DNA of 64,000 bases. It comes from a virus. The position numbers and the translations under genes are program-made. The DNA is taken from positions 60,111 through 124,110 of the IMG/VR virus record IMGVR_UViG_3300045988_179398; one strand, written 5' to 3'. The notes beneath the pieces were generated by a model that did not search any database, was not told where the DNA came from, and worked only from the letters and a program-made list of their open reading frames with translations. Below, one piece after another: positions 24,807-34,250 of this stretch (position 1 is its first letter; every line of letters starts with the position of its first letter).

Positions 24807-26113
24807 TTCATTAGTTAAAACTGATAGGTTAAGAGCTTCAGTGAAGAGAGAATATATAATCAGAAGGAGGTGATAAGTAAATGTTAAAAGCGTATAAATA
24901 CAGATTGTATCCAAACAAACAACAAGAAGAACAAATTCATAAAACTTTTGGCTGTTGCAGATTTGTGTATAATCAAATACTTGCTTATAGAAAAGAGAAA
25001 TATAAGCAAGATAAACAACATATGAATAAAATTTCTTGTAATAATTACTGTAATCAAGTTCTTAAAAAAGAATATGAATGGCTGAAAGAGGTAGACAAAT
25101 TTGCATTAACAAATTCAATTTATAATATGGATTCAGCATATCAAAAATTCTTCAAAGAACACGCGGGTTACCCTAAATTTAAGAGTAAGAAAAATCCTAA
25201 AAGAAGTTATACTACTAATCTTACGGGTAGAAATATAGAAGTTTCTTTTAACAATAATAAAATCAAACTTCCGAAACTTAAATGGGTAAAAGCAAAAGTC
25301 CACAGAGAGTTTCAAGGACAAATTAAGTCTGCAACTATATCGCAAATACCTTCTGGAAAATATTTTGTATCTGTATTGGTAGAAACAAGACATATTCCAA
25401 TGGATTCAACTGGAAATATGATTGGATTAGATCTAGGTATTAAAGATTTGCTTATTACTTCTGATGGTAAAAAGTATGGTAATATTCGTGCTACTAAGAA
25501 ATATGAGAAGAAGTTAGTAAAAGAACAAAGAAAATTATCTCATAAAGTAAAAGGTAGCAACAACTGGAATAGGCAAAGAATTAAAGTGGCGCGTATCCAT
25601 GAGAAAATTCATAACACAAGAATTGATAACTTACATAAAATTTCGCATAAACTTATTCAGGAAAACCAACTAATAGTTAGTGAAGATTTATCTGTAAATA
25701 ATATGATGAAGAATCATAATCTTGCAAAAGCAATTTCAGATTGTGGGTGGTATGAATTAACAACACAGTTGGGTTATAAGAGTGATTGGAACAATCGACG
25801 GTATATTAAGATTGGAAGATTTACCAAGAGTAGTCAATCCTGTAATGTGTGCGGTTATATCAATACAGATACAAAAGACTTATCTGTTAGAGAATGGATA
25901 TGTCCTCAATGTAATACAAAGCACAATAGAGATATAAACGCTGCGATTAATATACTCAACGAAGGGTTACGATTGCTTAATGAGGTAGCCTAAAGATATT
26001 TAATAGGGTTGGAACAATCCAAATTTACGCTTGTGGAGTTAGTAGGTTACGAGGACGTTGAAACAAGAAACTCATCGAGTTTTAGTTCATGGGTAGTTCA
26101 CTAAGTTAAACTG
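24807..26113 (+). mobile_element. non-autonomous IS200/IS605-type TnpB unit (copy 1)
   Basis: tnpB plus 3' non-coding tail. Bracketed by 17-nt imperfect direct repeats TTCATTAGTTAAAACTG (24807-24823) and TTCACTAAGTTAAACTG (26097-26113), 13/17 identical ungapped. No tnpA recognised. Confidence 0.55.
24881..25993 (+). CDS. tnpB: TnpB RNA-guided endonuclease (IS605 OrfB family)
   Basis: MLKAYKYRLYPNKQQ N-terminus. RuvC motifs GLDLGIKD, VSEDL, RDINAAINI. Zinc finger CNVCGY..CPQCN. Confidence 0.9.
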   Translation: MLKAYKYRLYPNKQQEEQIHKTFGCCRFVYNQILAYRKEKYKQDKQHMNKISCNNYCNQVLKKEYEWLKEVDKFALTNSIYNMDSAYQKFFKEHAGYPKFKSKKNPKRSYTTNLTGRNIEVSFNNNKIKLPKLKWVKAKVHREFQGQIKSATISQIPSGKYFVSVLVETRHIPMDSTGNMIGLDLGIKDLLITSDGKKYGNIRATKKYEKKLVKEQRKLSHKVKGSNNWNRQRIKVARIHEKIHNTRIDNLHKISHKLIQENQLIVSEDLSVNNMMKNHNLAKAISDCGWYELTTQLGYKSDWNNRRYIKIGRFTKSSQSCNVCGYINTDTKDLSVREWICPQCNTKHNRDINAAINILNEGLRLLNEVA

Positions 26114-26117
26114 CCAT
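25994..26117 (+). ncRNA. candidate omegaRNA 3' scaffold plus guide of TnpB-1 (5' part probably overlaps the tnpB 3' end)
   Basis: Non-coding tail with hairpins (GGTTGGAACAATCC). Shares GTGGAGTT and a ..TTAGT..GTTCA(C/G) end with the tail of TnpB-2. Extent inferred from the published TnpB architecture. Confidence 0.45.
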
Positions 26118-26178
26118 TTTTGTTTAGATATGGAAAAGCGTGGAAGGTGAAATTTCTGCGCTTTTCTCGCTTAAACGC

Positions 26179-26207
26179 TTGACAAATGGGTTTTGGTGTG
26201 GTATAAT
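26179..26207 (+). promoter_or_regulatory. sigma-70-type promoter P5
   Basis: AAACGCTTGACA, 17 nt, TGGTATAAT. Confidence 0.75.
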
Positions 26208-26232
26208 AAGTTCATAAAGTGGAGGTAAAGAT

Positions 26233-26436
26233 ATGACAAGCAAAGAAAAGTTTATAAAGTCTCTCAAAGCAGATATTCAAACACAAAAAGAGAAAAAGGA
26301 ACTCGCGGAAAAACTCGCTGAAAGAATTAAGAACGAATTTTACATTCAATTCGACGAGATAATTCCGTCGATTATGGCGGATCAAATTGACAAAATTGTG
26401 AAAGAAGTTCTCGATGAAGAGTTTTTTGGCAATTAA
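26233..26436 (+). CDS. hypothetical protein
   Basis: GGAGG RBS. Confidence 0.6.
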   Translation: MTSKEKFIKSLKADIQTQKEKKELAEKLAERIKNEFYIQFDEIIPSIMADQIDKIVKEVLDEEFFGN

Positions 26437-26468
26437 AGGTCGTGAATTCGATGCCTTTGGAGGAATAA

Positions 26469-27005
26469 ATGCAAGTAAAATGTCAAATTTGCGGCAAATC
26501 AATCGACCGTTCAACTGCATATAAAGTCGTGGTCAGCGGCACGAACAAATATTTTTGCTCGGAAGAAGAATTCAACGCTGATAAAGCCCGCAAAGACCAC
26601 GCGAAAGAAGTTCTCGAAACGATTGCGGAGTGTTATCAATATTGCTCTGGTTATGGGGAACCGCCTTATAACGTGGTTAAAAAAGAACTTAAAGAAAACC
26701 TCAAAACGGTCGATATCGAGACGATTTATCAATTCGTAAAAGAAAACCGCGAAAAACTCAAAAAGACGATTGAAAAGAAAATCGAACGAGATGGACCGTT
26801 TTCGCAGGTTTATTTCTTGTTTAGGTATGTGAGTGGGATAATAAAACGGGAAATACTTGAACACGGTTGGAAGGCGGCACAAGTCGCGCCGACCATTCAA
26901 AAAACTGGGATTGATTTGAATTTTTATAATGTCAAACCGAACACAAATCAACTTAAAAAGAGACGCTCGTTAGATGAATTGGAGGATCAACTACTCAGCC
27001 CTTAA
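26469..27005 (+). CDS. zinc-finger protein (possible replication accessory / helicase-loader position)
   Basis: N-terminal CQICG...YFCSEEEF motif. GGAGG RBS. Sits just upstream of the IscB insertion and the DnaB-like helicase. Confidence 0.5.
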   Translation: MQVKCQICGKSIDRSTAYKVVVSGTNKYFCSEEEFNADKARKDHAKEVLETIAECYQYCSGYGEPPYNVVKKELKENLKTVDIETIYQFVKENREKLKKTIEKKIERDGPFSQVYFLFRYVSGIIKREILEHGWKAAQVAPTIQKTGIDLNFYNVKPNTNQLKKRRSLDELEDQLLSP

Positions 27006-27217
27006 AAAGGTGTGGGCTTGCCCACTAGTTGATCAGACTAAGTGTTAAGCTACGTTATCAAAGAATATATAGGCACCGTAGGATGTATTCTCCAGTCTTA
27101 CGCTCTGCGGTATGTGATTAAACAGTTCTGATGAGTAGGAACAGTGTTGCATACGAAAACCTTTGAATAACATTGTCGTGGAGTAACCACTCTAACATAT
27201 AGGAGGCTATAAAAGCA
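27006..27217 (+). ncRNA. candidate IscB omegaRNA (HEARO-type), encoded 5' of iscB
   Basis: 212-nt ORF-free stretch directly upstream of iscB. Nested inverted repeats GATCAACTA (26985-26993) / TAGTTGATC (27026-27034) and AGCCC/GGGCT. Placement follows the known IscB architecture. Confidence 0.5.
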
Positions 27218-32697: not shown

Positions 32698-32772
32698 GCA
32701 CCTTTAGTATAACGGTATTATCCTGGCCTCCAAAGCCATGGGAACTGAGTTCGAATCTTAGAGGGTGTGCCA
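32698..32772 (+). tRNA. tRNA-Trp (anticodon CCA), CCA end encoded
   Basis: Hand-folded cloverleaf. Acceptor GCACCTT/AGGGTGT. U8. D loop with GG. Anticodon loop CTCCAAA. 5-nt variable loop. T arm CTGAG-TTCGAAT-CTTAG. G73 discriminator. Two weak pairs (13:22, 27:43). Confidence 0.75.
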
Positions 32773-32897
32773 GAATCCTGCGGTAGGTATACATACGCGC
32801 AGTCCGAAGCTATTGGCGGATAGAGAATTGATGTATAGCTATCATCACACGCAGAGCTGGTCGTGCTCGACAGAAGAACCCAGCCCATTTACTTGAC

Positions 32898-32936
32898 AAA
32901 ATTGTCCACGCACGAATGTGCGTGGACAATTTTGAT
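32898..32936 (+). terminator. strong hairpin terminator after the tRNA
   Basis: Perfect 16-bp stem AAAATTGTCCACGCAC / GTGCGTGGACAATTTT with a GAAT loop. Confidence 0.7.
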
Positions 32937-32969
32937 TGATATATATTTTAAAATATTAACAATAAACGC

Positions 32970-32998
32970 TTGACAAAACTTGAAAAGTATGTTATAAT
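32970..32998 (+). promoter_or_regulatory. sigma-70-type promoter P7 (drives TnpB-2)
   Basis: AAACGCTTGACA, 17 nt, TGTTATAAT. The -10 ends 25 nt before the tnpB ATG. Confidence 0.75.
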
Positions 32999-33023
32999 GG
33001 CAATAGAAAAAGGAGTGACAAGT

Positions 33024-34124
33024 ATGGAAAAGTCTTATAAATTTAGGATATATCCAAATGAAAAACAGCGTGTGTTAATGGCGAAGACTTTTGGTTGCGC
33101 AAGGTTTGTGTATAATTATTACCTTGATAAAAAGATTAAAGTATATAAAGAAACGAAGCAATCGATAAGTTTTTATGCTTGCTGTTTAGATTTAACGCTT
33201 CTTAAAAAAGAAGCCGAATGGCTTAAAGAGGTTGATAAGTTTTCATTGCAAAACTCATTACGAAATTTAGATGCCGCTTATCAGAAATTCTTTAAAGAAC
33301 ATTCTGGATATCCTAAATTTAAGTCTAAACACGATAATAGAAAATCATATAGGACAACGTTTACAAATAATAATATCGAATTTAAAGAAGGATATATAAA
33401 ATTACCGAAACTTGGATTAGTGAAATTCCGAGACGAGCAAATTCCGCAAGGAAGAATATTAAATGCGACGATTTCTCAAGTTCCGAGTGGAAAATATTAT
33501 TGTTCGATTTGTTGTACTGATGTTGTTATGGACGACTTACCCAAGACGGGTTGTGTTCTCGGAATAGATTTAGGGCTAAAAGACTTTTTAATTACAAGTA
33601 ATGGCGATAAAGTTTCTAATCCGAAGTATCTGTCTAAATCTTTAAACAAGCTTGCTAAATTACAAAGAGCGCTTTCGCGAAAACCAAACGGAAGCAATCG
33701 TAAAAATAAAGCAAGAATAAAGGTTACAAGACAGTATGAAAAGATTACAAACCAACGCCAAGACTTTTTGAAGAAATTATCGACTAAACTCATACAAGAA
33801 AACGATATTATCTGTTTAGAAGATTTGCAAGTCGAGAATATGGTTAAGAACCATAAACTTGCAAGATTGATAAACGATGTATCGTGGTTTGAATTTAGAC
33901 GACAACTTGAATATAAAGCCAAATGGTACGATAAACGAGTTGTAGCCGTAGATAAGTTCTTCCCAAGTAGTCAAATTTGTAGCTGTTGTGGTTATGTCAA
34001 TAAAGAAACAAAGGACTTAAAGGTTCGCAAGTGGGTGTGCTCTGAATGTGGAACAAAGCACGATAGAGATATAAATGCAGCGAAGAATATCTTAAACGAG
34101 GGTTTAAGATTATTGAATTGTTAA
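33024..34124 (+). CDS. tnpB: TnpB RNA-guided endonuclease (copy 2)
   Basis: [15 protein letters not shown]. Ruv[43 protein letters not shown] before ATG 33024. The listed start at 32970 is the TTG of the -35 box. Confidence 0.9.
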
Positions 34125-34250
34125 TAATTTAAAATAGATAAGAACCGCAGGAACTGCGGGGATAGCTCGGTAAATATCCACACAGTAGTGTGGAGTTCCC
34201 GAGAAATGCGCGACTTTAGTCGTATGATGTTCAGACGGTTTCTTTTTTGT
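34125..34250 (+). ncRNA. candidate omegaRNA 3' scaffold plus guide of TnpB-2
   Basis: Hairpins CCGCAGGAACTGCGG and CCACACAGTAGTGTGG. Shares GTGGAGTT and a ..TTAGT..GTTCAG end with copy 1. Confidence 0.4.

Follow-up and report, generated by a model that had tools for sequence, protein, structure and literature searches.

We analysed a 64,000-nt stretch of viral DNA (the window), positions 60,111 to 124,110 of the IMG/VR record IMGVR_UViG_3300045988_179398, and found in it three elements, E1, E2 and E3, each bearing an RNA-guided nuclease gene (tnpB or iscB) belonging to the OMEGA class (obligate mobile element-guided activity). The elements are non-autonomous insertions of the IS200/IS605 superfamily, i.e. 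ordinary members of known families and not a phage-specific system, and they lie within a Clostridia-type gut phage of about 124 kb. Each insertion is a precise presence/absence polymorphism that segregates independently among the strains of this phage, and the nuclease genes are under strong purifying selection matching that of the neighbouring core genes. With a rough probability of 0.55, we suggest from the sequence data that these are selfish elements which were seeded by a TnpA transposase acting in trans and were then maintained and spread by RNA-guided cutting of the empty alleles.

The features of the three elements are listed below in window positions, with TAM standing for target-adjacent motif and ORF for open reading frame.

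24787-24791, + strand: TAM position of E1, from the empty-site alignments and the left flanks of 15 other family copies
24792-26101, + strand: E1, non-autonomous TnpB-only IS605-type element of ~1310 bp, with left-end subterminal hairpin, tnpB1 and omegaRNA/right end
24881-25993, + strand: tnpB1 ORF, 370 aa, RuvC D/E/D residues and zinc finger intact
25890-26101, + strand: E1 omegaRNA scaffold, 5' limit approximate, overlapping the 3' end of tnpB1
26102-26117, + strand: E1 guide, TAAGTTAAACTGCCAT, the first 16 nt past the right end
26971-26986, + strand: E2 guide, TAGATGAATTGGAGGA, immediately 5' of the HEARO scaffold
26986-27190, + strand: IscB omegaRNA scaffold (Rfam HEARO, RF02033), upstream of iscB
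~26987-28495, + strand: E2, non-autonomous IscB (ISC) element of ~1509 bp
27218-28498, + strand: iscB ORF, 426 aa
~32940-34234, + strand: E3, IStron-related TnpB element, left limit uncertain (32887-32940), right end exact
32967-32998, + strand: promoter in E3 driving tnpB2, CGCTTGACA-N17-TATAAT, belonging with 10 further window promoters to one class
33024-34124, + strand: tnpB2 ORF, 366 aa, D/E/D residues and zinc finger conserved
34125-34234, + strand: 3' part of the E3 omegaRNA/right end, ending in GATGTTCAG
34235-34250, + strand: E3 guide, ACGGTTTCTTTTTTGT

Three insertions and their empty sites

All three insertion sites are empty in the sister phages L001-L006. The sister set comprises six IMG/VR contigs of 66-147 kb whose identity to the window is 85-92% in the region of the helicase gene downstream of E2. 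E1 is present in the window and L354 and absent from L001-L006, L260, L261 and L355; E2 is present with identical junctions in the window, L261 and L355 and absent from L001-L006 and L260; and E3 was found only in the window strain. Other TnpB or IscB genes occupy other sites in the sister phages. The window and L261, both bearing E2, are not each other's closest relatives in the flanking genes, e.g. their zf genes are 84% identical to each other and each is 88-91% identical to those of empty-site relatives. The orthologs of E1 and E2 are intact in strains that are ~9% diverged.

E1 has a precise empty site. Window position 24790 joins 26102 in the sister phages without target duplication, and the DNA similarity among E1 copies in unrelated contexts ends at 24793-24797 and 26101. 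The TAM position reads GTGAG in the window and GTGAA or GCGAA in the sister empty sites, with a family consensus of TTGAA or TTTAA. The right end terminates in GTAGTTCAC, and hairpins at the left and right ends are common to the family. E1 thus has what defines an IS200/IS605 element, i.e. insertion 3' of a short TAM and subterminal hairpins at both ends, the latter being degenerate in the window copy.

The original prediction, made from the sequence alone, had placed two TnpB genes and one IscB gene in this region, and the Pfam domains at 24881-25993, 33024-34124 and 27218-28498 confirm this. TnpB1 contains the domains HTH_OrfB_IS605 (PF12323), OrfB_IS605 (PF01385) and Cas12f1-like_TNB (PF07282), with E values of 1e-20 to 1e-26. 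Its motifs GLDLG, SEDL and RDINAA align opposite GVDVG, TEHL and DRDENA of ISDra2 TnpB, which we take to be D191/E278/D361, and the zinc-finger cysteines are in place. The alignment to the solved ISDra2 TnpB structures (8EXA/8H1J) runs end to end with an E value of 1e-82.

The omegaRNA of the E1 family is a conserved structure. We aligned 31 distinct 3' regions, whose consensus fold has 25 pairs, and 97.7% of the cells in this alignment are paired. The covariation score is 0.367, versus 0.197 for shuffled alignments (0 of 500 reach the observed score) and 0.04-0.10 for slid registers. Sequence conservation in the family stops exactly at GTTCAC, and the window copy has a weaker guide-proximal (terminal) stem than its relatives. 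The E1 guide matches 15 of 16 positions in every sampled empty site (TAAGCTAAACTGCCAT, with the mismatch at position 5), and the orthologous copy of L354, inserted at the same site, has a guide that matches perfectly.

E1 closely resembles ISDra2 and the TnpB-only IS605B (IS1341-like) elements, with the same domain architecture, D/E/D residues and zinc finger. Likewise it has a 5-nt TAM 5' of the left end (TTGAA in the E1 family, related to TTGAT of ISDra2), an omegaRNA overlapping the gene's 3' end and stopping at the right end, a guide taken from the 3' flank, subterminal hairpins and no target duplication. The difference from ISDra2 is that the window elements have no tnpA, either within the element or in the 84 kb examined, that they lie within the replication module of a lytic-type phage, and that the TAM of the E1 window copy is off consensus and its hairpins are weakened.

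E2 is bounded by its empty sites, where window position 26986 joins 28496/7, with an ambiguity of 1 nt (26986-28494 if the target is N/ATGA). Copies in unrelated contexts align over 26987 to 28498/9; all E2 copies begin with TCAAYTAC and many finish with TTA followed by TGAA, and the left flanks of the other IscB copies are all different. IscB has the Pfam domains RRXRR (PF14239, E 1e-63) and HNH (PF01844), and its alignment to OgeuIscB (7UTN/7XHT, E 1e-42) retains GIDAG, VETAQF, VHHI..N..H and HYIDA, covering RuvC I-III and HNH. The three nucleases thus appear catalytically competent, as had been expected, with the catalytic motifs kept in the alignments to the solved ISDra2 TnpB and OgeuIscB structures.

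The HEARO match upstream of iscB covers the full length of the model and scores 119.6 bits (gathering score 83, E 4e-24); the scaffold of L261 differs from that of the window at several positions inside predicted helices. The IscB guide had been expected near 27006-27025, which needs to be corrected, since the HEARO scaffold starts at 26986/7 and the guide is thus at ~26971-26986. It lies within the 3' end of the ORF at 26469-27005 and includes the Shine-Dalgarno sequence GGAGGA of the helicase gene in the uninterrupted allele. The guide matches 16/16 in the empty site of L005, where it is followed by TGAA, and the other empty sites have 1 or 2 mismatches to it.

The arrangement of the E2 right junction suggests that the downstream gene may be translationally coupled to iscB. 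According to the empty sites, the iscB stop codon TGA (28496-28498) is part of the target/TAM (A/TGAA), so that the iscB ORF extends to the element's final base, and an in-frame start of the helicase gene overlaps with the ATGA thus formed. The insertion separates the helicase gene from its GGAGGA ribosome-binding site, which is now part of the guide. We collected 20 distinct IscB ATGA junctions from the window (28495-28504) and the IscB loci L098-L177 and L261-L263, and 16 of them have a downstream ORF of at least 50 aa starting at the overlapping ATG; the background for a same-strand ATGA opening such an ORF is 29% (binomial p = 3e-6, with some of the sites being related). ATGA targets are known for ISC elements, in several ISC families (PMC4810608).

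Like the ISC transposons (PMC4810608), E2 encodes an IscB with the RRXRR/PLMP N-terminus, bridge helix, split RuvC and HNH insert, carries a full-length HEARO RNA, is non-autonomous and has an ATGA-type target. It differs in the size of its IscB (426 aa, versus 496 aa in OgeuIscB), in the use of the target TGA as the iscB stop codon, and in its close relatives being mostly on viral or phage-sized contigs. The closest of these are up to 91% identical in IMG/VR and up to 95% in metagenome assemblies, with one exception among the close relatives, an 86% match on a 62-kb binned contig, and the relatives in species-representative bacterial reference genomes are at most 64% identical. Another IscB copy was seen elsewhere in the sister phage L002 (14163-15383, 83% identical), with an ORF of just 275 aa that is apparently disrupted.

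E3 is, as judged by its sequence, related to IStrons and has neither the group I intron nor the left-end hairpin. TnpB2, whose likely start is the ATG at 33024 and not the TTG at 32970, has the same three Pfam domains as TnpB1, to which it is 54% identical with shared catalytic motifs. Its closest relatives, L252-L259 (86-87% identical), are IStrons with the order left-end hairpin, group I intron, internal promoter, tnpB and right end, and the intron of L252 matches Rfam Intron_gpI with 74.9 bits. No Intron_gpI match was found in 24700-34400, even at E values up to 1. The homology of E3 to L252-L259 begins only at 32940, no other locus in the comparison has the 53 nt at 32887-32939, and the copies in unrelated contexts align to E3 within 32940/33023-34234. 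E3 has no left-end hairpin and thus not the two hairpins of an IS200/IS605 element, though its right end and empty-site junction are exact; hence TnpA could not move it.

The promoter of E3 is kept in IStron copies of unrelated context and therefore belongs to the element. We rejected a left junction at 32974/5, in which TTGAC would directly precede the element and the TAM would also serve as the -35 of a hybrid promoter, because these copies conserve the whole promoter together with the preceding 30 nt. In the conserved 3' region of E3, one hairpin of the omegaRNA is fully compensated relative to L252 (TCCACAC..GTGTGGA versus AGAATTC..GAATTCT). Rfam has no family for TnpB omegaRNAs, and the sole weak match is the Enterococcus sRNA Ref70 at 34139-34251 (28 bits, E 0.13).

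The sister-phage homology resumes at 34235 for E3 and at 26102 for E1, so the TnpB guides given in the original prediction, 34235-34250 and 26102-26117, are exact. In the promoter of the kinase/HD and RNA-ligase genes, the E3 guide forms the spacer, and the TTGAC preceding it in the sisters is the -35 element. It matches 16/16 with the preceding TTGAC in L002, L003 and L006, and an exact pattern search of IMG/VR for this target returned only these three sister contigs, which had already been compared. The expected guide matches in related phages were thus found for all three elements, with TTGAC for E3, TGAA for E2 and one mismatch for E1. No other guide match with at most 2 mismatches was found in the window. 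A protein identical to TnpB2 is encoded on 17 contigs, all in this phage context.

The nearest relatives of E3 are IStrons with the same internal promoter, and the TnpBs of Clostridioides difficile, which like Clostridium botulinum has IStrons (PMC4227781, PMC10690162), are among the strong matches. Unlike an IStron, E3 has no intron or left-end hairpin, and it would neither be spliced from transcripts nor be mobile by TnpA. A TnpB2-type element was also seen near the ERF gene of L260 (2900-3000 and 4210-4260), with its left junction inside the -35 of a phage promoter and ~175 bp of phage DNA replaced. This junction suggests recombination between the phage promoters and the element's internal promoter.

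Selection, relatives and the search for a transposase

The three nucleases are strongly constrained. The ratio of nonsynonymous to synonymous substitution rates (dN/dS), measured against phage-borne relatives, is 0.05-0.10 for IscB, 0.10-0.17 for TnpB1 and 0.06-0.08 for TnpB2. The same-site IscB orthologs of the window and L261 have a dN/dS of 0.05 at a dS of 0.53. The flanking core genes have the same dN/dS and a dS of 0.37-0.99, a range that includes the IscB value. Hence E2 was inserted long ago and has retained its protein.

Relatives of the three proteins are widespread in phages. We confirmed relatives of TnpB1 in 176, of IscB in 195 and of TnpB2 in 196 viral-contig stretches, and 423 of the 50,697 phage records deposited contain TnpB homologs. 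Neighbouring IscB and TnpB elements, within ~1 kb of each other, also occur in other phages (L018, 1586-5224; L102, 3763-7922), so clusters of OMEGA elements recur.

No transposase was found to accompany the three elements. A Pfam scan of 170 window ORFs, i.e. the 20 long ORFs and the 150 longest remaining six-frame stop-to-stop frames (at least 88 aa), gave no match to Y1_Tnp or a resolvase (serine transposase), and tblastn of the window with the IS608 and IS200 TnpA gave nothing. The same queries recovered a tnpA directly upstream of tnpB in ~27 viral loci, so we consider the search to be sensitive enough. There is also no tnpA in the 10 kb of the contig before the window start or in the 10 kb past the window end, for which we used a second contig that overlaps the window by 10 kb with 100% identity. 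The prediction that no TnpA goes with these elements therefore stands for the window and the 20 kb beyond it. Autonomous relatives do exist: the viral contigs L069, L072, L085 and L086 share the right-end terminus GGGTAGTTCAC and have an adjacent tnpA, and Y1_Tnp is present in L252.

The retention of three nucleases had been taken to imply a function for the phage, and we do not share this conclusion. The sites are empty in several sisters, the insertions segregate independently, and relatives are found at other sites in many viral contigs, some of them autonomous with tnpA and tnpB. Such empty sister sites, scattered relatives and autonomous relatives are the signature of selfish insertion sequence (IS) elements colonising phages. 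The suggested homing or exclusion is a known and already published activity of TnpB and IscB rather than a new function.

Homing and its alternatives

We propose that these elements would spread in two steps. Seeding of new sites would be a rare event, by a Y1 TnpA that autonomous relatives of the host or of co-resident phages provide in trans, after which the elements would persist and spread in phages without TnpA. The nuclease-omegaRNA complex would cut the uninterrupted allele, with its TAM and guide match, in a co-infecting sister genome, and recombinational repair from the occupied genome would copy the element in, possibly with the help of the neighbouring ERF-type recombinase. The occupied allele would be immune because the insertion splits the TAM from the target. 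Such 'non-restorative homing' would be analogous to that of the free-standing homing endonucleases of T-even phages. The cost to the phage would be kept low by the insertion positions: E1 just past the ERF stop, E2 at an ATGA where iscB ends on the target TGA and the helicase start would be translationally coupled, and E3 in a promoter, but bringing its own.

The general mechanism has precedents. TnpB homing at vacant sites has been summarised (PMC10690162), TnpA-independent spread of TnpB in plasmids was shown in PMC11870625 according to the account in PMC13565253, and the same mechanism was proposed in theory for co-infecting phages (PMC13565253). Like the T-even homing endonucleases Seg and Mob (PMC13565253), the OMEGA genes in the window lie between conserved genes, are polymorphic for presence and absence, and are predicted to cut the allele without them in a co-infecting relative. 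They differ in that the target is recognised by an RNA guide and a TAM instead of a protein and that self-immunity comes from the target being split by the insertion; homing is here predicted from sequence.

An alternative hypothesis could be that E1-E3 are ordinary non-autonomous IS copies moved by a TnpA of the host or another phage, with the nuclease just recutting the donor site after excision and so restoring the copy. Much of our data would also be expected under this hypothesis: a conserved TAM by the left end at many unrelated insertion sites is the footprint of TnpA insertion and points to its occasional action in trans, relatives with tnpA and tnpB occur in viral contigs, an identical TnpB2-like protein is found in at least 3 contexts, and ISC and IS605B elements are documented as non-autonomous and predicted to be trans-mobilised (PMC4810608). 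We nevertheless hold it to be only about half as probable as homing. There is no tnpA in 84 kb of this genome; E3, lacking its left-end hairpin, is immobile by TnpA and yet has an intact ORF with a dN/dS of 0.06-0.08; and IscB has stayed at one locus over a dS of ~0.5 under strong constraint, which is hard to explain if it is needed only upon rare excision by a TnpA in trans. TnpA-independent homing better fits this constrained long-term retention, the lack of tnpA in the DNA examined, the intact nuclease of the TnpA-immobile E3, and the occupancy of divergent backbones, with E2 being present in two backbones whose nearest relatives are empty.

It is unlikely, in our estimate, that the nucleases have been domesticated for the benefit of the phage, as weapons against co-infecting relatives (interference competition) or as regulators. 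The purifying selection equal to that of core genes would agree with this, as would the targets, which are sensitive sites of a rival (the ribosome-binding site of the helicase gene and the kinase/ligase operon promoter), and the helicase translation that now appears, from the junction sequence, to depend on iscB; a precedent for nuclease-mediated competition in phages is among the work cited in PMC13565253. But most sister phages lack any given element and the three segregate independently, members of these families are found at many scattered sites in many phages, the L002 copy of IscB is truncated to 275 aa, and the guides are plain flanks with no sign of retargeting. Nuclease-dead repressors of the TldR type had already been argued against, rightly in our view: the RuvC catalytic residues are intact, and the guides are the immediate flanks with no other close matches in the window. 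Finally, the elements are very improbable as functionless relics of recent insertions that have not yet decayed, for while the E1 terminal hairpins are weakened, its guide is mismatched, and E3 has lost its left end and intron, the ORFs are full-length with all catalytic residues, dN/dS is 0.05-0.17 over a dS of 0.4-1.0, the omegaRNA helices are maintained by compensatory changes, and the orthologs of E1 and E2 are intact in diverged strains.

Several observations weigh against homing as the means of spread. Any IS605 or ISC insertion has, by construction, a guide that matches its empty site, and such a match is thus necessary but not diagnostic. The E1 mismatch is TAM-proximal and is seen against all sampled empty sites, and the window copy of E1 has weakened left-end and right-end hairpins and a TAM that departs from TTGAA. 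Most E2 empty sites have CGAA or CGAG, not TGAA. A comparison of the window with L261 shows no evident co-conversion tract around E2: identity is 82-90% in the flanks and 91% over the element, rising to 97-99% in one stretch inside it. Ordinary recombination of these mosaic phages, without any nuclease bias, could have produced the incongruence of occupancy with backbone. The tnpA search covers ~84 kb; the remaining ~40 kb of the source contig ERZ27229744:k119_262920, as well as the genome of the host, lie outside it.

More broadly, and as a tentative idea in which we put less trust than in homing itself, phage-resident OMEGA lineages may persist for long without a transposase as RNA-guided homing genes. 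The IscB type may in addition secure its place through ATGA start sites, where an essential downstream gene, here the replicative helicase, would lose its ribosome-binding site and depend on the translation of iscB.

This phage group supplies natural pairs of occupied and empty alleles for three OMEGA elements with known guides and TAMs and encodes an ERF recombinase, so a direct co-infection test is possible. If homing is true, RNA-guided nucleases would join the protein homing endonucleases as drivers of phage mosaicism and competition, and the iscB ATGA coupling would account for the tolerance of such elements by densely packed genomes. If it is not confirmed, the elements are routine IS insertions and should be annotated as such.

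The phage and its other genes

The window comes from a 124,153-bp contig of a gut metagenome, so the earlier description of a compact phage genome does not fit. A megablast search of 22000-37000 against the 50,697 deposited phage records gave no match, and the nearest phage isolates by DnaE are Clostridioides phages with 42% amino-acid identity. The elements are interspersed in a replication/recombination module as follows.

11933-15136: DnaE, upstream of the module
24099-24797: ERF recombinase, the first gene in module order
between TnpB1 and IscB: two small ORFs
28495/28504-30075: DnaB-like helicase, directly after IscB
30068-30916: FolD (methylene-tetrahydrofolate dehydrogenase/cyclohydrolase), followed by two tRNAs and then TnpB2
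after TnpB2: kinase/HD protein and RNA ligase (together at 34261-36415), then RecD2-like helicase
8455, 18000, 20604, 22805, 26176, 30920, 32967, 41229, 44485, 51177 and 52287: CGCTTGACA-N17-TATAAT promoters
L353 (reverse complement), 15007-16119: fourth TnpB, with canonical TTGAA TAM and right end ...GGGTGGTTCAC

The strong promoter CGCTTGACA-N17-TATAAT, with an extended -10, occurs in 11 copies in the window against 0 expected by chance. The kinase/HD protein and RNA ligase by the tRNA genes look like a tRNA-repair module. Between a small ORF and the tRNA genes lies a relatively G+C-rich, non-coding segment of ~800 nt (31320-32100), in which no Rfam family reaches its gathering score and the sole weak match is DUF3800-IX (31631-31695, E 0.16); the segment could represent degraded tRNA/intron material or a structured RNA of no known class.

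A free-standing ORF of the HNH_3/AP2 type, resembling a homing endonuclease, is encoded at 11143-11940, immediately upstream of the DnaE gene. An EcoRI-like adenine methylase adjoins a GmrSD_N+HNH protein at 61424-63753 (- strand), and an EcoRI_methylase match is also found in a second ORF of the window. The same phage strain has a fourth OMEGA gene, the 370-aa TnpB listed above, ~3.8 kb past window position 64000. It is encoded on the window's + strand despite its neighbouring genes being on the - strand, so all four OMEGA genes have one absolute orientation.

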